A DNA stretch of 22,040 bases from an uncultured archaeon (GCA_964586355.1 CAZPGO010000047.1:1-22040); one strand, 5' to 3'; shown: positions 4,618 to 22,040, counted from the first letter of the stretch. Notes: generated from the letters alone by a model not told the origin. Made by a program: numbers and translations.

Positions 4618-6720
4618 ATGAAAAATATAAACAAATTATTTTTGGCATTTTTAATAATCTTAATAGTTGTTTTTTTAGTTTTTATTATAACTGTTAATGT
4701 AGATAATTATAAGGAGATAAACTCTCCAGTTGATGAGAGGAACTTGACTATTTCAACAACCAACCTTTCTAGTGATTCTGCTTTTATAAAAGTTTCAAAA
4801 GAGGATCTATTAAGTATAATAAAACAAACAGATTCTTCTAGTAATCTAGACTTAGATCAAAGAGGTGGAGATGTTTTAAAAACCACGGAGTCTGTAGTTC
4901 CTTCTGCTCAATATGATTCTGATGGTGTGGTAGATTATTCCCAAACTAATGTTCAAGTTTCTGGTGTTGATGAAGGGGATATAGTAAAGACTAATGGAAA
5001 AAAGATATTTATAGGAAAAAGTAATGAGCTAATAGTTGTTGATGCTACTACTGTTCCAATAGAAGAGATTACAAAAATACAGATCTCTGATAAGGATAAT
5101 TATCATTATGATCAAGAAAATATAAGATCTATATTGCTTGATGAAAAAAACAATTATTTATATCTAATCACAGAAAAATACGATTTAGAAACAAAATTTG
5201 ATGACTCTCTATTACTTCCTCAAAGAATTAATCTTCCAATAACTGTAGTTGCCACTTATGATATAAAAGAAGATTCTTTAGAAAAATTAAATCAAATAGA
5301 AATAGAGGGTTCCTATTATCAATCAAGATTTAAAGAGGGTACAGTTTATCTTTTAACCACAAAAAACACTTTTTATTTTAATAACCCAATAACTATTAAG
5401 GATCTAATCTTAAGACCAATTAAAGAAACTAAAAAAGAAGAAACTTTCTATTTTGAGTCTGATATGATTATGCCAAAAGATCAAGGCATAGATAATAAAA
5501 ATATTTATAAAATTACAACCTTGAAATATAATTCAAATGATTATTCTGTAATAGATAGTTTAGATCTGTTATTAGATTATTCTAACACCATATATATGAG
5601 TAATAATAATTTGTATGTAGCTTATAAAAAACAAAGTTTTAGACCATATTATAGATATCCATTTAATACTGAAAATTTAGATATCTTTAAAGAGATCTAC
5701 AAAAAGATATATCCTCTAGATATTCAATCAGAAATCTCTAGTAATATTGATGATTCTGAAAAAATTATTTTAATATTAAATAATTATTATAACTCTCTAG
5801 ATTCACAAAATAAAGAAAAACTTTATCAAAAAATACAGTCTGAGGTTGAAAATTATTATAGATTGAAAAGAAAAGAATATGAGATAACTTATATTAATAG
5901 AATAAACCTAAAAGAAAATGGTTTCTTAGGAGATATAATAACAGGGCAAGTAAATGGAAGTCTATTAAATCAGTTTTCTATTGACGAAAAAGATGATTAT
6001 CTAAGAGTTGCCATAACTTATAATGATGAAGAATATAATTCTTTAAATGGTGTTATAATATTAGACTCTGATCTTAAAGAACACTCTTCTTTATTGGATC
6101 TTGCAAAGGGAGAAAGAATCTATAGTGTTCGTTTTTTAAAAGATAAATTGTTTTTAGTAACCTTTAAACAAATAGATCCCTTTTTTGTAATAGATTTAGA
6201 AGATCAGAAAAATCCAAGGGTCTTAGGTTATTTAAAAATACCTGGATATAGTAACTATTTACACCCAATTTCTGATACCCTAATCTTAGGTGTTGGTCAG
6301 GACACTAAAGAATCGGAATGGGGTGGTGTTGTAAATAGTGGTGTAAAGGTTAGTTTATTTGATATCTCTGATTATAATGACCCAAAAGAGGTCTCAACCT
6401 ATAAAGTATTTTCAGAAAATTCTCAAAGCCCAATACAAAATGATCATAAGGCTTTCTTATATGTTTCTAAGGAAAATTTAGTAGTAATTCCTGTGTTTGA
6501 TTATTACTACACAGAAAACTCAAACAAAATAAATTTCTATGTTTTAGAGATAAATCAAAATGAGCTTTTAGAGAAAGCTATTATTTTACATAATAGTAAA
6601 AAAAGTTATAGTAGTTTGTTGAGATCTCTTTACATTGGTGATGAGCTATATACAATAAGCGATGAATTAATAAAAACCTATAATTTTGAAAGTGCTCAAG
6701 AAACTGAGAAGATTATTTGA
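4618..6720 (+). CDS. Secreted or membrane-anchored beta-propeller domain protein (Beta_propel/PF09826-like)
   Basis: N-terminal signal anchor 'LFLAFLIILIVVFLVFIITV'. The C-terminal region carries 'DPFFVIDLEDQKNPRVLGYLKIPGYSNYLHP', which I recall as the hallmark of that family. 700 aa. Confidence 0.65.
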   Translation: MKNINKLFLAFLIILIVVFLVFIITVNVDNYKEINSPVDERNLTISTTNLSSDSAFIKVSKEDLLSIIKQTDSSSNLDLDQRGGDVLKTTESVVPSAQYDSDGVVDYSQTNVQVSGVDEGDIVKTNGKKIFIGKSNELIVVDATTVPIEEITKIQISDKDNYHYDQENIRSILLDEKNNYLYLITEKYDLETKFDDSLLLPQRINLPITVVATYDIKEDSLEKLNQIEIEGSYYQSRFKEGTVYLLTTKNTFYFNNPITIKDLILRPIKETKKEETFYFESDMIMPKDQGIDNKNIYKITTLKYNSNDYSVIDSLDLLLDYSNTIYMSNNNLYVAYKKQSFRPYYRYPFNTENLDIFKEIYKKIYPLDIQSEISSNIDDSEKIILILNNYYNSLDSQNKEKLYQKIQSEVENYYRLKRKEYEITYINRINLKENGFLGDIITGQVNGSLLNQFSIDEKDDYLRVAITYNDEEYNSLNGVIILDSDLKEHSSLLDLAKGERIYSVRFLKDKLFLVTFKQIDPFFVIDLEDQKNPRVLGYLKIPGYSNYLHPISDTLILGVGQDTKESEWGGVVNSGVKVSLFDISDYNDPKEVSTYKVFSENSQSPIQNDHKAFLYVSKENLVVIPVFDYYYTENSNKINFYVLEINQNELLEKAIILHNSKKSYSSLLRSLYIGDELYTISDELIKTYNFESAQETEKII

Positions 6721-6782: not shown

Positions 6783-8132
6783 ATGAGAGTTTTACCAGAA
6801 GATAAAGGAAAGCTTGTTACTATTAAAAAAAAAGATGTTACTTATAAAGGGTATATTGTAAATATAATTGAAAAAAACAACCTTCAAGAACTAACTATAA
6901 AACTTTTAGATAATGGGTATAATATTTCTGTGTTAATTGATTCTGATACAAAAATAGTTGTTGGTACAGAAAGTAAAATATTTGGTCAAAAACAAAAGAT
7001 CAATATTACTCAAAACCCTAATTTGCCTTCTGTTGCTTTAATAGCAACAGGGGGGACTATTGGTACTCATGTAGATTATAAGAGCGGGGCTGTAAGTATG
7101 TCTAGATCTGCTGAGGAAATTATTTTTACTGTTCCTGAATTGTTAGATATAATAAATATTAAAAAAATAGACTCTATATCCATGAAAGGAAGCGAAGATC
7201 TTGGTTATAAAGATTGGCAAAAAATGTCAGAGAGTGTTTTTAAAGCCCTTAATGATTCAGATATTAAAGGCATTATTATTTTACATGGAACAGATACTCT
7301 TGCATGGAGTGGAACTGCAATATCATTTATGATAGAAAATATAAATAAGCCAGTACTTTTAGTAGGTGCTCAAAAATCCCCTGATCGTGCAAGCTTTGAT
7401 GGGGCTATGAATCTTATTTGTGCTGCTAGGTTTATTGATCAACAAGTGCCAGGAGTCTTTACAGTTATGCATGGATCAATAAATGATGATTTTTGTGATG
7501 TTATTAGAGCAACAAAATGTAGAAAAATGCATTCTTCAAGAAGAGATTCTTTTAAAGCAATAAACGATTTACCAATAGCAAGAGTTTTTGAGAATGGTGA
7601 GATAACTTATCTAAAAGATAAAAATAAGTTATCAAAACCAATAGGGAAACCAAAAATAAACAATTGCTTTTCTGATTCTGTTGCTATTTTAAAAGCATAC
7701 CCAAATAGTGATCCAAAAATAATAGAGTGGTATATTGAAAATAACTATAAGGGTTTAATTATAGAAGGCACTGGTTTAGGTCATTGTCCAATAGGTCTAG
7801 GAGGAGATGATACTTCTTTTGATTCTAATAAAAATTGGGCCCCTTACATAAAAAAAGCAAATGATGCTGGACTAATAGTAATAATTACAACTCAGTGTTT
7901 GTTTGGAAGAGTAAATGCAAATGTTTATGCAAATTTAAGGTATCTAAAAGAAGCAGGAGCAAACTACTTAGACTCACATGATATGCTTTGTGAAGTTGCT
8001 TATATAAAATTATGTGTGGCTTTAGCAAGATTTGATAAAAAAGAAGAAGTTCTAGAATTTATGAAAACAGATATATCTGGAGAGATTTCTAAAAAAGAAG
8101 TAGTAAAAAGTTTTGAATTAGATTTATTATGA
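6783..8132 (+). CDS. gatD: Glutamyl-tRNA(Gln) amidotransferase subunit D
   Basis: Asparaginase-type active-site motif 'ATGGTIG', plus 'HGTDT' and 'EGTGLGH'. It has the N-terminal domain of about 80 aa typical of GatD. Its stop overlaps the gatE start as ATGA. Confidence 0.92.
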   Translation: MRVLPEDKGKLVTIKKKDVTYKGYIVNIIEKNNLQELTIKLLDNGYNISVLIDSDTKIVVGTESKIFGQKQKINITQNPNLPSVALIATGGTIGTHVDYKSGAVSMSRSAEEIIFTVPELLDIINIKKIDSISMKGSEDLGYKDWQKMSESVFKALNDSDIKGIIILHGTDTLAWSGTAISFMIENINKPVLLVGAQKSPDRASFDGAMNLICAARFIDQQVPGVFTVMHGSINDDFCDVIRATKCRKMHSSRRDSFKAINDLPIARVFENGEITYLKDKNKLSKPIGKPKINNCFSDSVAILKAYPNSDPKIIEWYIENNYKGLIIEGTGLGHCPIGLGGDDTSFDSNKNWAPYIKKANDAGLIVIITTQCLFGRVNANVYANLRYLKEAGANYLDSHDMLCEVAYIKLCVALARFDKKEEVLEFMKTDISGEISKKEVVKSFELDLL

Positions 8133-10054
8133 AAAAAATAACTATTGATTCCATTAATTATGATACTGTTGGTTTATGCTGTGGTTTAGAATTACATCAA
8201 CAATTGGATACTAATAAACTTTTTTGTAATTGTAGATCTAGATTAATAAAAGAAGATATAAAGCCAGATAAAATAATAATAAGGAAATTAAGACCAGTTT
8301 ATTCAGAATCAGGGGAAATAGATTTTGCTGCTGAGGATGAGAGAAAAAAACAAAAAACTTATACTTATTATTTTTATAATTCTTGTAACTGTTTAGTTGA
8401 CTCAGATTCTCAACCACCAATAACCATAAATCAAGAGGCTTTAAAAATTGCTTTGGTGGTTTCAAAATTAACCAATAGTAAGCTAGTTGATAAATCTATT
8501 GTTATGCGAAAACAAGTAGTTGATGGTTCAAATGTTTCTGGTTTTCAAAGAACTACAATGATTTCTACTGATGGTTTCTTGAATTTTGATTTTGGAAAAG
8601 TAAGGATTGATAAAATACTTTTAGAAGAAGATTCTGCAAGGGCTATTGAAAAAAAAGAAAATGAAGTTATATATTCTCTAGACAGATTAGGTATTCCATT
8701 AATAGAACTAGTTGTTTGGCATGATATGCACACCCCAGAGCAAGTAAAAGAAGTCGCACTAAATGTTGGACGTTTGTTTCGCCTAACGGGCTTTGCAAAA
8801 AGAGGCCTTGGTTCTATTCGTCAGGATATTAATATTTCTATTAAAGATGGGCAAAGAGTTGAGATAAAGGGTTGTCAAGAATTAGATTTGATTCCAGAAA
8901 TTGTTAATAGAGAGATTATTAGGCAACTTAGTTTATTGGAAGTTAAAAAAGAACTAAATGACAGAGAGTTATCCCTTTTTACTCTTAAAGAGCAAAATCT
9001 TAGTGAAGTTTTTAAGCAAACAGAATCTAAGGTCATAAAAAGTTCTTTAGAAAAAAAAAAAGAGATCTATGGTTTTTTAATACCAAAAATGAAAGGAATC
9101 TTAGGTTATGAGATTCAGCCCAACAGAAGGGTTGGTAGTGAGATCTCTAGTTACCTAAAAGCAAAAACTTCTCTTAAAGGTCTTTTTCATAGTGACGAAT
9201 TACCTAACTATGGAATTTTAGAAAAAGAAATTGAAATGGTTTCAAAAAAATTAATTCTTAAAGAAAATGATGCTTTTATTTTGGTTGTGTGTAATTCTAA
9301 AGAAATAGAGTTAGTAAAAAAGGTTATAGAGGATAGATTAAACAAATTATTAGAAGGAGTTTTAAAAGAAACCAGAATGGCAAAACCGGATGGCAACACA
9401 GAGTTTGCAAGAGAGCTCTCTTCTGGTGCTAGAATGTATCCAGAGACTGATGTTTTGCCTATTGAGTTTACAAAAGATTTGTTAGATGTGGTTAATTTGT
9501 CTATTCCTTTGTCTATTGGTAAGAGAAGAGAGTTATATCTTAATAATTTTAAAATAAGTGAACAGTTAGCAAAAAAAATGTATTGTGATAATTATGCAAT
9601 GACTTTTGAAAAGATTGTAAAAAAATATAATAGAAATCCAACACAAGTAGCTGTCTTTTTGTTAGAAGATTTAATAAATCTATCAAGAGATAATAAAATA
9701 GTTTTAGAAAATGTTTCTAGCCAAAAACTTTTAGAATTTTTTGCATATAAAGATTTTGACAAAATTCCTAAATCAAAAATTTTAGGTGTTTTCGTTTATT
9801 TTTTAGAGAATGATTGTTTGGTAAGTGATGCTATTAATGATTTAAATATTTTTAAAGATGCTTCTAAAATTGATCTAGAATCTATTATTGACAAAATCTT
9901 TTTAGAATATTCTAAAAACATAAAAGAACAAAAAGAAAGATCTTTAGGTCTATTAATGGGAAAAACAATGGCAGCTACTAAAGGGCTAATTGATGGAAAG
10001 ATCATTTCTCAAAAAATAAATTCTAAGCTTTCGGATTTTTTAAAAGATCTTTGA
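8129..10054 (+). CDS. gatE: Glutamyl-tRNA(Gln) amidotransferase subunit E
   Basis: The N-terminus 'GLCCGLELHQQLDTNKLFCNC' matches the GatB/GatE cradle. 'GSIRQDINISI' and 'YPETD' motifs are present. The 641-aa size is consistent with the GatE-specific insertion and C-terminal tail domain. Translationally coupled to gatD. Confidence 0.92.
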   Translation: MKKITIDSINYDTVGLCCGLELHQQLDTNKLFCNCRSRLIKEDIKPDKIIIRKLRPVYSESGEIDFAAEDERKKQKTYTYYFYNSCNCLVDSDSQPPITINQEALKIALVVSKLTNSKLVDKSIVMRKQVVDGSNVSGFQRTTMISTDGFLNFDFGKVRIDKILLEEDSARAIEKKENEVIYSLDRLGIPLIELVVWHDMHTPEQVKEVALNVGRLFRLTGFAKRGLGSIRQDINISIKDGQRVEIKGCQELDLIPEIVNREIIRQLSLLEVKKELNDRELSLFTLKEQNLSEVFKQTESKVIKSSLEKKKEIYGFLIPKMKGILGYEIQPNRRVGSEISSYLKAKTSLKGLFHSDELPNYGILEKEIEMVSKKLILKENDAFILVVCNSKEIELVKKVIEDRLNKLLEGVLKETRMAKPDGNTEFARELSSGARMYPETDVLPIEFTKDLLDVVNLSIPLSIGKRRELYLNNFKISEQLAKKMYCDNYAMTFEKIVKKYNRNPTQVAVFLLEDLINLSRDNKIVLENVSSQKLLEFFAYKDFDKIPKSKILGVFVYFLENDCLVSDAINDLNIFKDASKIDLESIIDKIFLEYSKNIKEQKERSLGLLMGKTMAATKGLIDGKIISQKINSKLSDFLKDL

Positions 10055-10897: not shown

Positions 10898-11416
10898 ATG
10901 ATTGTAAAAAAAAAACTAAAAAGTCTTTATGCTCCTTGGAGAAAAAAATATATTTTAGGTTCTCTAGAAAATAAGGATAATTCTAAAGCCTGTCCTTTTT
11001 GTAAAACAGATGAAGAACATCAGGTTTTTGAAACTAAAAAAACCATGATAAGATCAAATAAATTTCCTTATTCTTCTGGTCATCTTTTGGTTATTCCTAA
11101 AAGACATATTAACGATATTACTAATCTAACCACAAAAGAGAGCGAAGAGTTATTTAATCTAATAAATCTTAGTGTTTATCTTTTAGACATATATATGAAA
11201 CCAGATGGATATAATATAGGTTGTAGTGTGGGAAAAATAGCTGGGGAAAGTATAGATCACCTACATTTTCATATTTTGCCAAGATTTGCTGGAGATGTTG
11301 GTTGGAATAGATTAGGGGATTTTAATGTGATTAGTGAATCTCCTAAGGAGACTACAAAAAATCTAAAAAAAATAATAAAAGAGCAAAGATTACCTAAAAA
11401 GTTCGGTATTTATTAG
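10898..11416 (+). CDS. HIT-family nucleotide hydrolase/transferase (Ap4A phosphorylase-like subgroup)
   Basis: Histidine-triad motif 'HLHFHILPR'. 'GHLLVIPKRH' is present, along with the N-terminal 'APWRKKYI' that I associate with the Ap4A-phosphorylase-like HIT branch. Confidence 0.82.
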   Translation: MIVKKKLKSLYAPWRKKYILGSLENKDNSKACPFCKTDEEHQVFETKKTMIRSNKFPYSSGHLLVIPKRHINDITNLTTKESEELFNLINLSVYLLDIYMKPDGYNIGCSVGKIAGESIDHLHFHILPRFAGDVGWNRLGDFNVISESPKETTKNLKKIIKEQRLPKKFGIY

Positions 11417-12047: not shown

Positions 12048-12509
12048 ATGAAATATTTTATGCAAACAGCCATACTTGAAAGCATAAAAAGCATTTCAAA
12101 ATCAGGCGGTCCATTTTCTGCATTGATTGTGAAAAATGGCAAAATAATTTCTGTAGGTCATAATGAAGTTGCAAAAAAAAATGACCCTACTGCTCATGCT
12201 GAGATTATTGCTATTAGAAAAGCTTGTAAGAAATTAAACACATTTAATTTGTCTGGTTGTGAGATCTATGCCAGCAGTTATCCATGTTCTATGTGTTTAT
12301 CTGCTATTGCTTGGGCAAGAATAAAAAAAGTCTATTATTTTTTTGATTTAGATCATGCTCATAGTTCTAAATTTGATGATCAAGAAATCTACAATTTTAT
12401 AAATAATAAAAAATCTAAAATAAAAATGAAAATAGAAAAAGTAGATTTTGCAATAGAAGAGGATCCATTTGAGATCTGGAATAAAAAAAAGGATAAAATA
12501 AAATATTAG
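12048..12509 (+). CDS. guaD: Guanine deaminase-like CDA-fold nucleoside/base deaminase
   Basis: Zinc motifs 'HAE' and 'PCSMC'. It is colinear with my memory of B. subtilis GuaD: 'GGPF.A.IVK.G.II', 'DPTAHAE..AIRKACK', 'FDD..IY', and a C-terminal 'PF..W' tail. 153 aa. Confidence 0.75.
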   Translation: MKYFMQTAILESIKSISKSGGPFSALIVKNGKIISVGHNEVAKKNDPTAHAEIIAIRKACKKLNTFNLSGCEIYASSYPCSMCLSAIAWARIKKVYYFFDLDHAHSSKFDDQEIYNFINNKKSKIKMKIEKVDFAIEEDPFEIWNKKKDKIKY

Positions 12510-12528: not shown

Positions 12529-13527
12529 ATGTCGTCGTTAGGATATATAATTTTACTATTAATTTTAATACTTCTTTCTGGTTTTTTTTCTAGTGCTGAA
12601 ACAGCATTAATGTCTATTCATTTTATAAAAATAAAGTCATTAGTTAAAAAGAAAAGACCAGGTGCTAAAGTTTTATTGAAACTAAAAAAGCACCCTCATT
12701 ATTTGATAATTACTCTTTTAATTGGTAATAATATAGTAAATATTTTTGCAACAGCAATAGCAACTTATTTGTTTATCAATTGGTTTGGTGTTGGTGGTGC
12801 TGCAATTTCAGCAATTGTTATGACTGTTGTAATATTAATATTTGGAGAGATTCTTCCAAAAACTATTGCTATTCAAAACTTTGAAAAAGTTTCTTTGGCT
12901 GTTGCCACACCGATAAATATTTTGTTAAAAATTTTTTATCCATTAGTAAAGCTTTTTTCCGCATTAACTCTTACTCTAAATAAGGTAATAAAACCAACAA
13001 CTACACACAATATTTCAGAAGACGAGCTAAAAGTAATTTTAACTCTTGGTAAGCAAGAGGGTGTTTTAAGTAAAGATGTTGCAAAAATGATGCATAATGT
13101 TTTGGAGTTTGAAGATACTAAGGTTACTAAGGTTATGACTCCAATAGAGAAAGTGAAACTTGTTGATGGTAATCTAAAAATTGAAGAGGTAATTGACTTT
13201 ATTGTAAAGCACTCTTTTTCAAGATATCCTGTATACTTAGAAAACAAAGATGATGTTATTGGTGTTTTAGATGTTGATGATGTTCTAAAAGCTATAAAAG
13301 AAAAAAAAGGATCTTCTTTAGTAAAGGATCTAATAAGACCAGTAGAGTTTGTTTTGCCAACAAAGGAGCTAGCAGATATCCTTTATGACTTTGAAGATAG
13401 ATCTGTATTAATGGCTATTGTTGTTGATGGAGAAGGAGAGGTTTTAGGTCTTTTAACAGTTGAAGATATTTTAGAAGAAATTGTTGGAGATATTTTTGAT
13501 AAGAGTAATAAAAAGAGAAAAAAGTAA
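12529..13527 (+). CDS. DUF21 (CNNM-type transmembrane) plus CBS-pair protein; putative Mg2+/Co2+ transport mediator lacking the CorC_HlyC domain
   Basis: N-terminal 4-TM DUF21 with 'FFSSAETALMS' and 'GEILPKT'. A CBS pair follows ('VMTPIEKV...', 'VVDGEGEVLGLLTVEDILEEIVGDI'). The track starts at GTG 12517; ATG 12529 is the more likely start. The protein ends right after the CBS pair. Confidence 0.85.
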   Translation: MSSLGYIILLLILILLSGFFSSAETALMSIHFIKIKSLVKKKRPGAKVLLKLKKHPHYLIITLLIGNNIVNIFATAIATYLFINWFGVGGAAISAIVMTVVILIFGEILPKTIAIQNFEKVSLAVATPINILLKIFYPLVKLFSALTLTLNKVIKPTTTHNISEDELKVILTLGKQEGVLSKDVAKMMHNVLEFEDTKVTKVMTPIEKVKLVDGNLKIEEVIDFIVKHSFSRYPVYLENKDDVIGVLDVDDVLKAIKEKKGSSLVKDLIRPVEFVLPTKELADILYDFEDRSVLMAIVVDGEGEVLGLLTVEDILEEIVGDIFDKSNKKRKK

Positions 13528-13574: not shown

Positions 13575-14906
13575 ATGATTAATAAAATATCTCTCTCCCC
13601 ATTGATCGCCACGATCTTACTTATTGTTGTTACTGTTGTATTAGCAACCATAATTTTAACCTGGGGAAAAGATCTAGTTACTTCTTCTGTTCAAAATACT
13701 GATTCAATAACTAAAACTAATCTTTTTAGTGACAGACAATATTCTATTAGATTTTTAGAAGCAAAAAATGGCAGATATTTTTTTGATTATCATTCACCAC
13801 CTAGTGATGTTGAGTTTACTGTTGTTAGTTATGCTTATGTTGGTTATCCATATGTTCCTTTAGAACCAGAAAAAACAATAAGTTCCCAAGGCAGATTCTA
13901 TTTAGATCTTGGTATTGTTGATGAAGATCGTTTTAGTATTTCTTTACTTTTAGATGATGGAAGTTATTTAAATTTTGAAAATGTAACTAATGTTAATAGA
14001 TCTCCTTCTCCAAGTGATTGTCCTGTAGGTTATATTCCAGTACCTGGTAATCATCTATATGGAACTGTTGGATCAAAAGGCGGATTTTGTGTTATGAAAT
14101 ATGAGGCAAAAGTTGATGAGGATGGTGACGGGATTGGAGATGTTAATGCTACATGTCAAAATTCTAATTTTGGAACTTGGAATAATAATGGTGCTAGTTG
14201 TAGTTATACTTTAAATAATAGAGTTATTGTTTCAAGTGCTGTTGGATATCCATTAGCAACAATTTCATTACTAGAATCTATTACTGCTTGTGAATCTATT
14301 AATAGTAATTTAATAACAAATGATGAGTGGATGACAATTGCAAGAAATATTGAAAGAGTTTCAAGTAATTGGTCAAGTAATATAATTGGTACTGGATATA
14401 TTTATTCAGGACATAGTGATAATTTACCTCCGGCTGCATTAGCTTCCAATATAAATGATAATAATGGTTATTATTTAACTGGTCAAACAACTGGTAATCA
14501 AAAAAGAACTTTAATTTTAAATAATGGAGAAATCATTTGGGATTTTGCTGGTAATGTGTTTGAAAATAGTGAAGATATGAATTCTTTTTATTTAAGTACT
14601 TATTATGATAATTTTGCTGATTGGACAGAAATTGAATACTCTGATTTTTATAAATTTAGTTTTGAAGATTTAGGGTTAAAAGGTTATAAAGGTAATTTTT
14701 TATTAAATTCAGATTATAATAGTGATGCTGGTGTTGGTAGAACCAGGGGTGTTAGACATAATAATCCTTATAGAGATACAGCCCTTATTAGAAGTGGTTA
14801 TTGGAATGGCACTTCTGGTGCTGGTATTTTGAGTTTAGATGTAGGTGATAATCCTACTGGTAGATTTTCAACAGTTGGGTTTCGTTGCGTATATTATCCA
14901 GAATGA
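13575..14906 (+). CDS. Archaeal type IV pilin-like (class III signal peptide) surface protein with a C-terminal FGE-sulfatase/SUMF1-like (C-type-lectin-fold) domain
   Basis: N-terminus 'MINKIS|LSPLIATILLIVVTVVLATIILTWGKD' matches the archaeal pilin/flagellin N-terminal signature. The C-terminal half carries 'GFCVMKYEAK', 'ITACESINSNLITNDEWMTIARN', 'IWDFAGNVFE' and a terminal 'VGFRCV'. Their order matches FGE-sulfatase domain motifs as I recall them. Confidence 0.8.
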   Translation: MINKISLSPLIATILLIVVTVVLATIILTWGKDLVTSSVQNTDSITKTNLFSDRQYSIRFLEAKNGRYFFDYHSPPSDVEFTVVSYAYVGYPYVPLEPEKTISSQGRFYLDLGIVDEDRFSISLLLDDGSYLNFENVTNVNRSPSPSDCPVGYIPVPGNHLYGTVGSKGGFCVMKYEAKVDEDGDGIGDVNATCQNSNFGTWNNNGASCSYTLNNRVIVSSAVGYPLATISLLESITACESINSNLITNDEWMTIARNIERVSSNWSSNIIGTGYIYSGHSDNLPPAALASNINDNNGYYLTGQTTGNQKRTLILNNGEIIWDFAGNVFENSEDMNSFYLSTYYDNFADWTEIEYSDFYKFSFEDLGLKGYKGNFLLNSDYNSDAGVGRTRGVRHNNPYRDTALIRSGYWNGTSGAGILSLDVGDNPTGRFSTVGFRCVYYPE

Positions 14907-14950
14907 TCTAATGCTTATTCTAAAAACCAACTAGATGCTTTTCTTTTCGT
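14889..14950. repeat. Direct repeat copy A (62 bp), left boundary of the LamG-pilin cassette
   Basis: 'gtatattatccagaat' is 16/16 identical to 16088-16103. 'ttattctaaaaaccaactagatgcttttcttttcgt' is 34/36 identical to 16117-16152 (hand-counted). The two blocks are separated by a non-matching 10-nt versus 13-nt core. Confidence 0.85.
14915..14950 (-). pseudogene. Relic of the last 11 codons plus stop of the 156-aa gene (paralogous to 16117-16152)
   Basis: The reverse complement reads TKRKASSWFLE*, against TKRKAPSWFLE* at the true 3' end of CDS 16117..16587. Upstream of this the similarity stops. The track ORF 14915..15100 is therefore not a gene. Confidence 0.7.
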
Positions 14951-14953
14951 AAT

Positions 14954-14979
14954 CTTTTTATATGTTTTCTTCTTTTTAT
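14954..14979 (+). promoter_or_regulatory. Conserved promoter module (TATA-like 'ctttttatat' plus downstream T-rich block) of the LamG-pilin gene
   Basis: 'ctttttatatgttttcttctttttat' is identical to 21901-21926, upstream of the third pilin gene. The TATA-like element lies about 25-30 nt before ATG 14985, which implies a leaderless or very short-leader archaeal transcript. Confidence 0.6.
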
Positions 14980-14984
14980 ATATT

Positions 14985-15965
14985 ATGTTTTTATTTAAGA
15001 AATCAGTTTCTCCCTTGATCGCAACAATCTTAATAATAGTTATTAGTGTTATATTGATCACTGTTGTTTTAAGTTGGGGAAAAAATTTTACAGAAAACAA
15101 ATTAAGTTCTTCAACTATTTCTACAGAAAAAGATCTAGAATATGTTACTCTTCCAAAAAGTTATATTTTATCATCTCATTTTCCTAATTACAATTCTATT
15201 CTTTTACAAAATACTAGTGATAAAAACATTACTGTTGTTAGTTATAAGTTAATAAGTCCAAATAACAATTATAAATATTTAAATAAAGACATAAATGTTG
15301 ATTCTTTTAATATTTTTCCAGGAGAATTAAAACCATTTCCTATTATTTGTTTTCCAGATGAAACATTTATTTTGTTATTAAAAACAGATAAAGATCAATA
15401 CATTTCTGTTAATATTAATACTGGTTATTTAAAATATTCTGGTTATTGTTTAGGAGAAAGTGGTTTAATATTTAGAGAAGATTTTGATTCAGAAGAAGCT
15501 GTTATTGAAAATGGGGGTGCTCCATTAAATGTAATTTATGAAAATGGTGTTGGGATTTTTAATGGCACGAGTAGTTATATTATATATAATAAACCATTAA
15601 ATGGAACTTATACTTTTAGAATAATTATTAAAGATTTTGTTTTAAATGATTATAAATATCTAATGAGTAGATACCCAGATACTTCTGGAACTGTTGGTTA
15701 TATTAATTTAATGGCAGACGGAACATTAAGAAATGATGCTTTTGATACAAAATATATTAATGGTGTTGAAAGTAGTGTTATTACAAATACAGATCATACA
15801 GAATTAGTAATTAGTGGCATTTCATTTAATTTTCTAAAATTTGTTGTTGGTGCGATGAGAAATTTGTCTTCTGCAAGTATTTTTAACGGCAAAATAGAAT
15901 TATTTGAAATCTACAACAGAACACTTACAGCTGATGAGATTAAAACTTTATATGATTATAATTAA
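14985..15965 (+). CDS. Archaeal type IV pilin-like (class III signal peptide) surface protein with a C-terminal LamG/concanavalin-A-like lectin domain
   Basis: N-terminus 'MFLFKKS|VSPLIATILIIVISVILITVVLSWGKN'. The C-terminal 160 aa or so carry 'IFNGTSSYIIY', 'FTFRIIIKDF' and 'VVGAMRN....IFNGKIELFEIYNRTLTADEIKTLY'. This matches the Laminin_G_3-type pattern (F.G...y; l.iG; f.G.idev.iynraLsa.EI..ly). Confidence 0.8.
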   Translation: MFLFKKSVSPLIATILIIVISVILITVVLSWGKNFTENKLSSSTISTEKDLEYVTLPKSYILSSHFPNYNSILLQNTSDKNITVVSYKLISPNNNYKYLNKDINVDSFNIFPGELKPFPIICFPDETFILLLKTDKDQYISVNINTGYLKYSGYCLGESGLIFREDFDSEEAVIENGGAPLNVIYENGVGIFNGTSSYIIYNKPLNGTYTFRIIIKDFVLNDYKYLMSRYPDTSGTVGYINLMADGTLRNDAFDTKYINGVESSVITNTDHTELVISGISFNFLKFVVGAMRNLSSASIFNGKIELFEIYNRTLTADEIKTLYDYN

Positions 15966-16087: not shown

Positions 16088-16152
16088 GTATATTATCCAG
16101 AATAAGCTTTAATTATTTATTCTAAAAACCAACTAGGTGCTTTTCTTTTTGT
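16088..16152. repeat. Direct repeat copy B (65 bp), right boundary of the LamG-pilin cassette
   Basis: Partner of 14889-14950. It begins with a relic of the last five codons of the FGE-pilin gene ('gta tat tat cca gaa t' = VYYPE plus the first stop base). It ends inside the true 3' end of CDS 16117..16587. Confidence 0.85.
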
Positions 16153-16587
16153 CCATTTTGCAAAATCTGCTTTTTCTTTTTTATAATATTTTCTATATGC
16201 TTTTATTGCATTTTTTTCTTTATATTCTTCAGGTGTAGCTTGAGCAAATTCTGTTAAACCAATATTTGGAAGATTTGGAATATTTTCTAAGATTTTTTTT
16301 ATTTCAATAGTTTTGTGTGTTTTTCCATATCTGTAAGTATATTCTTTTAATAGTTCTTTAAGATGTTCTAATAACCAAACATAATTTTCTTTAGATTCAT
16401 TTGCCCAAATAACACAAGGATGTTTTTCGTGTGTTTTTTTATATAAAAGATCTTTATACTTAGAATTAGTTAAATGATGTGCTGTTGAGAGAATTTGAGC
16501 AGACTCAACTATCATTTTTACTACATGTTTATCACAAAGCATTCTTGCTGCTTTTTTTGGATCTTTATCCAAAACAAATATTTGCAT
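16117..16587 (-). CDS. Conserved hypothetical protein (N-terminal 'LDKDPKKAARMLCDKHVVKMIVESAQILSTAHH' motif)
   Basis: Clean 156-aa ORF, 15 nt downstream of and co-oriented with the 69-aa gene. I recall the D.DP..AA..LCDKHVVKM..E.AQ.LS motif from uncharacterised proteins often encoded by phages, large viruses and scattered bacteria. I cannot name the family. Confidence 0.65.
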   Translation of the reverse strand: MQIFVLDKDPKKAARMLCDKHVVKMIVESAQILSTAHHLTNSKYKDLLYKKTHEKHPCVIWANESKENYVWLLEHLKELLKEYTYRYGKTHKTIEIKKILENIPNLPNIGLTEFAQATPEEYKEKNAIKAYRKYYKKEKADFAKWTKRKAPSWFLE

Positions 16588-16842: not shown

Positions 16843-16915
16843 TAGCCCGAAGGAGATTCGAACTCCTGTCGCAAGATCCAGAGTCTTGCATGCTTGGCCA
16901 CTACACTATCGGGCT
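16843..16915 (-). tRNA. tRNA-Gln (anticodon CUG), 73 nt, no encoded CCA
   Basis: The reverse complement folds by hand into a cloverleaf. Acceptor AGCCCGA/TCGGGCT with discriminator A. D-arm GTGT-AGTGGCCAA-GCAT. Anticodon stem CAAGA/TCTTG with loop CTCTGGA (positions 34-36 = CTG). T-arm AGGAG-TTCGAAT-CTCCT. The segment is GC-rich in an AT-rich background. Confidence 0.93.
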
Positions 16916-21463: not shown

Positions 21464-21547
21464 TTTTATTCACCTATATATATATTATTTAGAAAATCTA
21501 TATATAGGGTTTGGTAGGGGGGGTCTTGTCCACTGGAGCCTTTCTTA

Positions 21548-21860
21548 AAAAGAAAGCCTCGGGAAAGAACAAAAATGGTTACGCTTTCGTTGACACGCAA
21601 TATAACCGGTTACGCTCGGTTAATGTGCAATTATAAGTTTATGCAAAAACGAAATGAAAAGAAAGCCTTGGGAAAGAACAAAAAGGGTTTCGCTTATAAC
21701 CCTTTTAGAAAAAATGCTTAACCCCAAAATAAACTGTTTCATAAGAAGTGTAATCAAATAATTTTTTTCAAAAAAAGTTTAATCAAAAACGAGATAAAAG
21801 AAAGCTTAAGCAAAGAAAATAAAAAAATAATCAAAAATGAGATCAGAAAAAAATTATTAC
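21548..21860 (+). repeat. Degenerate direct repeats in a long spacer
   Basis: Units at 21548-21585 and 21657-21694 are 35/38 identical (hand-counted): 'aaaagaaagcctcgggaaagaacaaaaatggttacgct' versus 'aaaagaaagccttgggaaagaacaaaaagggtttcgct'. A decayed third copy starts at 21796 and a possible fourth near 21832. Units 2-4 are preceded by 'caaaaa(c/t)ga(a/g)at'. Nested 'ggttacgct' repeats occur at 21577 and 21608. Confidence 0.7.
21681..21706 (+). other. Perfect 9-bp stem / 8-nt loop hairpin inside repeat unit 2
   Basis: 'aaaagggtt' (21681-21689) pairs with 'aaccctttt' (21698-21706) around the loop 'tcgcttat'. Repeat unit 1 has only a weaker 5-bp version (ggtta...taacc). Confidence 0.5.
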
Positions 21861-21900
21861 TAAAACCTAGTAACTATCTATTTTTCTTATTTTTCGCAAC

Positions 21901-21926
21901 CTTTTTATATGTTTTCTTCTTTTTAT
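21901..21926 (+). promoter_or_regulatory. Conserved promoter module of the third pilin-like gene (identical to 14954-14979)
   Basis: 26/26 nt identity with the module upstream of the LamG-pilin gene. With flanks, 34/36 nt match from 21891. The TATA-like 'ctttttatat' lies about 25-30 nt upstream of ATG 21933. Confidence 0.6.
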
Positions 21927-21932
21927 TTAAAT

Positions 21933-22040
21933 ATGTTTCACAAGCGTTCTGTTTCTCCCTTAATCGCCACAATTTTATTAATAGTTGTTAGTGTAATATT
22001 AGTTACTGTTGTTTTAACTTGGGGATCAGACTTTGCAAAA
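21933..22040 (+). CDS. 5' end (36 codons) of a third archaeal type IV pilin-like protein, truncated by the window end
   Basis: Translates to 'MFHKRS|VSPLIATILLIVVSVILVTVVLTWGSDFAK'. In the 75 nt encoding VSP...WG, 65 are identical to the LamG-pilin gene (hand alignment, no indel). Confidence 0.8.
   Translation, partial: MFHKRSVSPLIATILLIVVSVILVTVVLTWGSDFAK

Follow-up and report, generated by a model that had tools for sequence, protein, structure and literature searches.

Putative modular type IV pilins of an AT-rich, DPANN-type archaeon and their relation to targets of diversity-generating retroelements

Why would a small archaeon keep, side by side, two genes whose products begin like pilins and end in unrelated domains of the ligand-binding type, and what would such proteins do at its surface? 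The question is raised by a stretch of 22,040 nucleotides from an uncultured archaeon (GCA_964586355.1 CAZPGO010000047.1:1-22040, here the window, meaning this whole stretch), in which genes A and B are arranged head-to-tail on the plus strand and a third gene, C, is cut by the window end (Table 1). A first-pass annotation, made from the sequence alone, had read them as pilin scaffolds with interchangeable lectin-type heads, a candidate toolkit for host attachment. The open reading frame (ORF) positions that it gave for A, for B and for the start of C are exact, and the features that it described are real, far beyond chance. The source organism is an AT-rich, DPANN-type archaeon. Both complete proteins consist of a class III signal peptide, a hydrophobic helix, a beta-sandwich and a C-terminal head, the two heads being unrelated to each other. 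We consider, with a probability of roughly 0.6, that A, B, C and their paralogues outside the window are archaeal modular type IV pilins, minor or tip subunits that act as adhesins.

A pilin N-terminus in three genes and a full pilin module in two

The three proteins start with a short charged leader, followed by SPLIATIL[LI]IV[VI].V.L.T..L.WG (A, MINKISLSPLIATILLIVVTVVLATIILTWGK; B, MFLFKKSVSPLIATILIIVISVILITVVLSWGK; C, MFHKRSVSPLIATILLIVVSVILVTVVLTWGS). Of the three, A (25.0 bits) and C (25.3 bits) exceed the 20-bit cutoff of the NCBIfam model for the archaellin/type IV pilin N-terminal domain (TIGR02537). When two archaeal filament subunits of solved structure, 3j1r and 8rey, are aligned with the proteins, their first residues fall on residue 7 of A and residue 8 of B, and from this alignment cleavage is predicted between KIS and LSP in A, KKS and VSP in B, and KRS and VSP in C. 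The bacterial prepilin motif (IPR012902/N_methyl) was found in neither A nor B, and their N-terminus is archaeal in type. Searches with the single sequences of A and B against PDB sequences returned the N-terminal helix only, and family profiles were needed to go beyond it. With its family profile, A matches the pilin 8fk7 at an E value of 4.3e-6.

The AlphaFold (AF2) model of A was built from 50 homologues (predicted local distance difference test, pLDDT, 81.6; predicted template modelling score, pTM, 0.81) and has a helix at residues 9-40, a sandwich at 58-137, with strands mostly at pLDDT 80-97, and a head at 145-443. By Foldseek, the helix and sandwich together matched two type IV pilins of Pyrobaculum, 8fk7 at E 9.8e-5 and 6w8u at E 1.1e-3, each with a template modelling score on the target (TMt) of ca. 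0.4; FN3 domains were also matched by the sandwich. The model of B has a helix at 10-41 and strands at 70-145 (pLDDT ca. 60-84), and in the models of both proteins the sandwich is made up of six to seven strands. The two family profiles aligned with a probability of 99.1% (hhalign, E 9e-19), pairing residues 2-135 of A with residues 3-143 of B. The two regions are thus homologous, and helix and sandwich together form one pilin module of ca. 140 aa, which is more than a common signal peptide. The idea that A, B and the third gene open with the same class III signal peptide and pilin helix was confirmed, by TIGR02537 for A and C and by the 3j1r/8rey alignments for A and B. A beta-rich region had also been recognized behind the helix, rightly for both proteins, but it had been thought to share only short patches, where the profiles reveal a homologous domain.

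Unrelated heads on the same module

The head of A has the C-type lectin (CLec)/formylglycine-generating enzyme (FGE) fold and belongs to the branch of this fold formed by the variable proteins of diversity-generating retroelements (DGRs). The best Foldseek match was TaqVP (5vf4, E 2.5e-5), the variable protein of a Thermus DGR, and Mtd (1yu0) was matched too. The A-family profile matched TaqVP (E 0.0021), including its C-terminal variable region, and weakly SUMF2 (E 0.019) and PorK/GldK. A and the DGR variable proteins have a C-terminal framework in common, RGG.W..G..AG.L.L....P......GFRC. No Pfam family was matched anywhere in the head of A itself, and FGE-sulfatase (PF03781) gave no match at E<=1. 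Among the 1269 homologues of A, many full-length ones carry PF03781, and the closest GTDB relative (L010) scores 30.5 bits against a cutoff of 23.3. In the sources these homologues go by the names "SUMF1/EgtB/PvdO family nonheme iron enzyme" or "flagellin-like protein," both of which probably mislead here. The sequence of A has no Cys between RSG (residue 406) and GFRC (Cys438), the stretch that holds the catalytic cysteine pair of FGE in human SUMF1.

The head of B appears, from sequence comparison at the family level, to be LamG/concanavalin A (ConA)-like. Laminin_G_3 (PF13385) was matched at E<=0.01 in seven of the eight sequences scanned, B included, with a best E value of 3.9e-27, and the B-family profile matched the LamG-like structure 4qvs (7e-13), an arabinanase module (1e-8) and pentraxins (1.6e-3). 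Residues that bind carbohydrate or Ca2+ are not conserved throughout this superfamily.

We also found that B seems to be a late arrival at its location. A direct repeat of ca. 63 bp (ca. 88% identity) flanks the gene. Both copies include the final codons of gene A (VYYPE) together with the 3' end of a convergent Pyr_excise gene, which indicates that gene A and Pyr_excise formed an older junction into which B was later inserted. A small minus-strand ORF (14915-15100), ending in KRKASSWFLE, is a remnant of Pyr_excise. Upstream of their ATG, B and C have a near-identical promoter-like sequence of 26 to 30 nt (CTTTTTATATGTTTTCTTCTTTTTAT).

The reach of the module was much wider than these two genes. 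A word-indexed search gave only short stand-alone pilins; by exhaustive HMMER search, the module profile recovered 685 representative clusters at E<=1e-3 and 92 at 1e-10. The 85 long representatives with a full module that were chosen for scanning carry 43 Pfam families among them, including Laminin_G_3 (19 of the 85), Glug (10), RCC1 (8), Lcl_C/DUF1566 (6), DUF285 and DUF5122 (4 each), and Kelch, NHL, PKD and FGE-sulfatase (2 each). Gene D (608 aa), beyond the window, has a related N-terminal part and a GLUG/IgA1-protease-like head. In "Ca. Forterrea multitransposorum" (CP045477.1; L015 8578-13273), three modular pilin genes are adjacent (469, 437 and 592 aa), the middle one A-like and the outer two ending like the B-family member P0127.

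What had been said of the heads fared unevenly in these comparisons. One scaffold bearing many heads was strongly borne out. As for their lectin type, A and B do end in unrelated ligand-binding folds, but other kinds, such as GLUG, RCC1 and Kelch propellers and tandem repeats, are found on the module as well. The FGE-sulfatase-like assignment of A had the fold right, at the family level, but missed its specific kind, the DGR variable-protein branch with TaqVP as top match. A LamG-like head in B holds for the family and not by the score of B alone.

Gene C is an irregular case. Its frame breaks ca. 45 codons in, where the N-terminal ORF ends with ILLD and two stops, and it continues in another frame (L001 16949-18651) as an ORF of 538 aa with ca. 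9.7 tandem repeats of 66 nt (22 aa). The split is present in three assemblies (L001/L005, L002/L006 and L007), with no long homopolymer at the site, and could correspond to a pseudogene, a systematic assembly error or recoding. The 470-bp intergenic region 5' of the gene contains repeated units, AAAAGAAAGCCT[CT]GGGAAAGAACAAAAA[TG]GGTT[AT]CGCTT, at 21548 and 21657; a third copy, degenerate, lies at 21796, and a 14-nt inverted repeat at 21473/21495. No Rfam family was matched in this repeat-rich region (21464-21932).

Candidate pilus machinery

No assembly genes were found on the 35-kb contig to which the window belongs. Through the short pilin P0158 recovered with the module profile, we located a separate cluster (L087/L088) in which two T2SSF platform genes accompany four short pilins of 150-169 aa (L087 10001-12042). 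Three of these have an N-terminus with AVSP[LI]IATIL[LI]IVV (cf. KKAVSPLIATILLIVVAVILVTIVLTWGK) and the fourth one with ALSPLIATILLVAV; the helix of A and B is almost identical to that of these short pilins. L088 comes from the sequencing run SRR2986055, which also holds an A/B contig, and the cluster is also present in the same JGI sample series. The tetranucleotide correlation of the cluster with the window is 0.988-0.992, versus 0.955-0.98 for other DPANN loci, and it probably belongs to the same organism. Split platform genes have been described in archaeal type IV filament system 1 and in subsystem 4A, DPANN included (preprint 10.64898/2026.04.22.720090).

Pilus adhesins or anchored binding proteins

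Modular type IV pilins have been defined as proteins with a pilin module and a non-pilus functional module (PMC8179133), and A and B are made up of these two parts. Given the archaeal type of their N-terminus, they are analogues of that class and not members of it in the InterPro sense. By analogy we infer three steps: the proteins are processed, they become part of a filament (probably of its tip), and they attach to the surface of partner cells or to other surfaces. A prepilin peptidase would cut after Ser6 in A or Ser7 in B, the helix would dock into the core of a type IV pilus made of short pilins with the same N-terminus, and the bulky heads would be shown at the tip or sparsely along the fiber. 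Their ligands there would be surface molecules, probably glycans or proteins on other cells. The head of A would no longer be diversified in this organism (see below), and variety would come from paralogues with different heads that turn over by insertion, duplication and inactivation.

Several observations weigh against this interpretation. On the side of the pilin module, B scores only 14.4 bits with TIGR02537, under the cutoff of 20, and Pfam Pilin_N (PF07790) stays below threshold (E ca. 0.005) in B as it does in A and C. The residue before the predicted cleavage site is Ser in the three proteins, while most homologues have Ala or Gly and the family consensus is Ala. On the side of the heads, those of 170 to 300 aa are hard to fit along a filament body. 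B alone reaches 22.6 bits (E 1.3e-4) with Laminin_G_3, under the cutoff of 27.6, and its AlphaFold head, modelled from eight sequences, is unreliable (pLDDT 47.9, below 50). As for the machinery, the platform/pilin cluster lies on a separate contig assigned by composition and co-occurrence only, and neither prepilin peptidase nor assembly ATPase was seen on the available contigs or within 10 kb of the short-pilin cluster. Finally, of five paralogues observed, gene C and another A-like gene are disrupted, and the set may be partly decaying.

The sugar-binding proteins of the Sulfolobus bindosome carry class III signal peptides, and A and B might likewise be surface binding proteins that use this signal for export and for anchoring in the membrane or in a pseudopilus, with substrate capture as their task. 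Heads of this size would suit such a display, as would the lack of assembly genes adjoining genes A to D; LamG and CLec modules are also found in nutrient-binding proteins, as in the arabinanase module matched by the B family, and the bindosome is a recognized archaeal type IV filament subsystem (preprint 10.64898/2026.04.22.720090). We regard this arrangement, the main rival, as unlikely. Behind the helix, A and B have a full pilin-type sandwich and not a mere anchor, the helix itself is nearly that of the four short pilins beside platform genes, and no transporter genes are adjacent. Besides, the A family is hypermutated in relatives (next section), which is typical of receptor-type recognition and not of nutrient binding.

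Diversity-generating retroelements in relatives of gene A

With a script, we compared the last 200 nt of each homologue of A with its own locus, in both archaeal and bacterial GTDB loci, in search of template repeats. At L009 (homologue P0004, 55% identical to A and with the same architecture), two Avd-like genes come after the gene, and then a repeat of the gene's 3' end, in which seven of seven mismatches fall on adenines of the downstream copy. Cis template repeats were likewise recovered in L010 (20 of 20 mismatches at adenines), L011 (18/18), L012 (17/22), L013 (18/18), L017 (12/14) and L042 (20/20), and the homologues at these six loci and at L009 have archaeal pilin N-termini. The closest GTDB relative, at L010 (58% identity), has the complete series: variable protein, Avd-like gene, bAvd (84 bits), template repeat and the reverse transcriptase domain RVT_1 (82 bits). 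Within the 90%-identity clusters P0048 and P0067 ("Ca. Forterrea"), the members differ mostly in the last ca. 45 residues, as expected for active diversification. Close relatives of A are therefore active DGR targets, in which the last ca. 35 codons of the head are rewritten by a cassette of Avd, template repeat and reverse transcriptase.

The L009 element differs from this in some details. Its variable region (11250-11381) and template repeat (12319-12441) differ in length by 9 nt, and no reverse transcriptase gene was called within 10 kb, though the two Avd-like genes are present; this DGR may be decaying.

The full-length form with an archaeal pilin module was found only in archaeal metagenome-assembled genomes (MAGs), named "archaeon," "Ca. 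ainarchaeum/Iainarchaeum" or "Ca. Forterrea." The head alone is more widespread, in Saccharibacteria, Parcubacteria, Gracilibacteria, Peribacteria, Bdellovibrionales, Aenigmatarchaeota and Nanobdellota. Bacterial homologues align to residues ca. 145-443 only and carry PF07963 and FTLIELL motifs. Template repeats were also present in several loci of the candidate phyla radiation (CPR) and of other bacteria, with bacterial prepilin motifs (e.g., FTLIELL) in L051, L063 and L066.

Head-only homologues are common in MAGs of Bdellovibrionales/Oligoflexia, predatory bacteria, and also in CPR (L023, L026, L040, L049, L054, L055, L067, L082 and L086), and in the template repeat of L023, 21 of 23 mismatches are at adenines. 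In a "Ca. Iainarchaeum" MAG (L014), two A-like genes lie 6.3 kb apart with 220-nt 3' ends that are 100% identical (6408-6627 and 12759-12978) and include the GC-rich variable region (0.59). No template repeat was found in that locus, and the pair could derive from a recent duplication or represent two targets rewritten from one remote template.

Gene A as a probable former target

In the organism of the window the situation is different, and gene A looks like a former DGR target that is now static. No copy of its 3' end was found elsewhere in the window or in L001-L007, which cover ca. 31.5 kb of the 35-kb contig, and neither reverse transcriptase nor Avd is present among the called genes of that contig (L001, L005). 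Relatives that have a template repeat, in genomes just as rich in AT, show the variable region as a conspicuous island of high GC content (0.60-0.68), while its equivalent in A has a GC content of 0.40. The A protein and the translated template repeat of L009 can be aligned with no gap, and the residues of A at the template Asn positions (Y, N, G, G, S, D, G, D, N, G, F, S, T) can all be reached by adenine mutagenesis, a pattern that fits past mutagenesis of this kind followed by drift to genome composition. Six contigs from several samples have a single allele of the A protein, and the 3' 330 nt are identical in four assemblies; the former is a weak test, given that the assemblies are >=99.96% identical overall and thus near-clonal. 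Contigs of this organism are present in JGI 3300077522, 3300077562, 3300077564 and 3300077317 and in the runs SRR2986055 and SRR1179181. The DGR cassette of L010 is located directly upstream of flavodoxin/Fer4, DUF2207 and PPDK genes, and the same neighbors follow gene D on the contig of the window.

A second A-like pilin-CLec gene (L090 6551-7978) was recovered from the sample of the window's contig (JGI 3300077522), beside ArgRS. It is split into ORFs of 110 and 348 aa, is syntenic with the intact homologue P0016 in L008, and its variable-region equivalent is AT-ameliorated as well (GC 0.43). It has in common with gene A a promoter-like TTATAAA[TG]GTTTG[CT]AT that is unlike the one of B and C.

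A remote template was sought in GTDB genomes and JGI metagenome contigs with a pattern in which each non-A base was allowed as A, anchored on GTTGGGTTTCGTTG and validated on L009. It gave no matches; the variable region of A is itself absent from these collections, so the organism is not in them and the search is uninformative.

The head of A might still be an active target, if its template repeat and reverse transcriptase lay in another part of an incomplete genome and acted on it in trans. Its family is a family of DGR targets, the nearest relatives (55-58% identity) have cis cassettes, remote DGR targets are known (PMC5758913), and the reachable residues at template Asn positions would be expected here too. 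We find this quite improbable, as the variable-region equivalent has decayed in GC content to a level far from that of relatives with a template repeat, and the one of the second A-like gene, probably from the same organism, has decayed likewise. The single allele, within the limits of near-clonal populations, points in the same direction, as do the lack of a cassette along ca. 34 kb and the fact that in a relative the cassette occupies the place of gene D, with the syntenic flavodoxin, DUF2207 and PPDK genes downstream of it.

An enzymatic role for A in the SUMF1/EgtB/PvdO (formylglycine-generating) family, suggested by the PF03781 matches and NCBI enzyme name of its homologues and by the weak SUMF2 match, can hardly hold and was rejected, since A itself lacks an FGE Pfam match, a non-enzymatic DGR variable protein is what it matches best, both in structure and by profile, there is no Cys before GFRC, an extracytoplasmic pilin N-terminus and hypermutation of the same stretch in relatives are at odds with a conserved active site, and TvpA has the same fold without FGE activity (PMC5758913).

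We put forward, as a tentative idea that is somewhat less probable than its opposite, that pilin-fused CLec proteins are the missing functional context of the many DGRs of DPANN and CPR, i.e., hypermutating adhesins of the type IV pilus tip with which ultra-small episymbionts track host surfaces as these change. In DPANN the same design of head and template would be mounted on pilin modules of the archaeal type, in CPR on bacterial prepilin modules. The organism of the window would then represent a frozen end-state, with the retroelement lost and the variable region ameliorated, in which recognition diversity would arise instead from the turnover of pilin paralogues that bear swapped heads, a turnover that proceeds by insertion (with the junction duplicated), sharing of promoters and pseudogene formation.

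Comparison with known systems

Modular pilins and CLec-fold DGR targets are both known already, and the archaeal, DGR-linked form is the new part. In Streptococcus sanguinis, PilB (vWA) and PilC (ConA-like lectin) are adhesins presented by type IV pili (PMC8179133, PMC9934059). PF13385 is among the modules most commonly grafted onto bacterial modular pilins, with many examples from CPR bacteria (PMC8179133). A PF13385 head, the proposed tip position and the adhesin role are points of likeness with our proteins; in contrast, the module of A and B is archaeal (TIGR02537/PF07790, beta-sandwich), is known from sequence, and one of the head types comes from a DGR-targeted family. Fusions of lectin-type domains to archaeal pilin N-termini had been described in the first-pass annotation as not experimentally characterized; bacterial equivalents, including a lectin-headed pilin, have been (PMC8179133, PMC9934059), and the novelty is confined to the archaeal, DGR-linked form.

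The DGR variable proteins TaqVP (5vf4), TvpA, Mtd and the archaeal AvpA (PMC6328139, PMC5006420, PMC5758913) resemble A in their CLec fold and C-terminal framework and have cassettes like those of its relatives. Gene A differs from them: ca. 34 kb hold no cassette, its variable region is AT-ameliorated and one allele only is seen. Its family differs in having an archaeal pilin module. A large survey found the DGR targets of DPANN and CPR to be typically without recognizable transmembrane or other domains (PMC8144416), and bacterial pilin-type domains among DGR targets have received passing mentions (PMC11661182, PMC6642488). In the literature searched, with Paul et al. 2017 on CPR/DPANN DGRs outside its coverage, no description of archaeal pilin modules on DGR targets was found. 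The type V pili of Bacteroides are reported to carry DGR-diversified adhesive subunits (bioRxiv 10.1101/2024.11.15.621889), and there too hypermutated binding modules are placed on a pilus. They are assembled by strand exchange, unlike the N-terminal helix core of type IV pili, they belong to other organisms, and gene A is not currently diversified.

The DUF2341/PilY-like adhesins of archaeal type IV pilus loci (PMC4858521) are, like A and B, predicted pilus-associated archaeal adhesins. They are large separate proteins within machinery loci, while A and B are pilin fusions away from machinery genes. A protein with DUF2341 and LamG_3 lies near the homologue of A in L009.

Bindosome proteins are solute-binding and linked to ABC transporters. 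Those of Sulfolobus (subsystem 4I, 10.64898/2026.04.22.720090) resemble A and B in their archaeal class III signal peptides, large ligand-binding domains and type IV filament-like machinery. A and B differ from them by the pilin-type sandwich, the lectin/CLec heads and the lack of transporter genes nearby.

Other features of the window

Coordinates are collected in Table 1. The GC content of the window is ca. 27%, and its gene content is archaeal, with GatD/GatE at 6783-10054 and an XPD-type helicase. A tRNA gene (16843-16915, minus strand; Rfam RF00005, 62 bits) lies between a small zinc-ribbon-like ORF and an NT5C-like gene. Beyond the window, L005 1-1619 contains a PEP synthase/PPDK gene with an intein and a LAGLIDADG homing endonuclease (Pfam Intein_splicing and LAGLIDADG_3).

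Table 1. Modular pilin genes of the window, their parts and the flanking repeats (positions counted from the first nucleotide of the window)
Feature	Position	Strand	Evidence
Gene A, putative modular archaeal pilin, 443 aa, pilin module and CLec/FGE-fold head	13575..14906	+	ORF; 1269 homologues; AF2 pLDDT 81.6, pTM 0.81
A, class III signal peptide (residues 1-6) and hydrophobic alpha-1 helix (7-40)	13575..13694	+	TIGR02537; 3j1r/8rey alignment; 8fk7 profile match; AF2 helix 9-40
A, beta-sandwich of the pilin module (residues 58-137)	13746..13985	+	AF2 strands; Foldseek; homology to B sandwich
A, head (residues 145-443), C-type-lectin/FGE-sulfatase fold, DGR variable-protein type	14007..14903	+	Foldseek; family profile; bacterial homologues
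A, variable-region equivalent (RSGYWNGTSGAGILSLDVGDNPTGRFSTVGFRC), AT-rich now, invariant in available assemblies	14790..14888	+	Alignment to L009 template repeat; GC 0.40
Direct repeat (ca. 63 bp) around gene B, left copy: gene A end and remnant of Pyr_excise 3' end	14889..14951		ca. 88% identity to 16088-16153
Promoter-like region 5' of gene B (CTTTTTATATGTTTTCTTCTTTTTAT), nearly identical to that of gene C	14950..14984	+	Alignment
Gene B, putative modular archaeal pilin, 326 aa, pilin module and LamG-like head	14985..15965	+	ORF; 7 other proteins matched, 6/7 annotated PF13385
B, signal peptide (residues 1-7), alpha-1 helix (8-41) and beta-sandwich (ca. 70-145)	14985..15419	+	8rey alignment; hhalign to A family; AF2
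B, LamG/concanavalin-A-like head (residues ca. 160-326)	15462..15962	+	Laminin_G_3; family profile
Direct repeat around gene B, right copy: remnant of the last codons of gene A and true Pyr_excise 3' end	16088..16153		Repeat alignment
Promoter-like region 5' of gene C, duplicate of that of gene B	21898..21932	+	Alignment
Gene C, 5' end: same signal peptide and helix, cut by window end	21933..22040	+	TIGR02537, 25.3 bits

Significance for DPANN and CPR

Type IV pili have been implicated in the host attachment of ultra-small episymbionts, with evidence for CPR bacteria (PMC11623550, PMC9938205). DPANN and CPR are unusually rich in DGRs, and the function of the DGR targets has been described as largely unknown (PMC5758913, PMC8144416). 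A DGR-diversified head on a pilin module ties pilus attachment to this abundance and offers concrete candidates for testing. Through it, the concept of modular pilins reaches beyond bacteria into archaea, with a catalog of heads on one archaeal pilin module that includes LamG, GLUG, RCC1, Lcl_C, Kelch and others. For specialists, the interesting part would be that DGRs and type IV pilins are linked at the family level in DPANN and CPR, a link of which the genes of the window are a static, probably post-DGR example. The head of A, a static version of a domain hypermutated by a retroelement in related archaea and in ultra-small bacteria, hints at how such cells recognize surfaces or partner cells.

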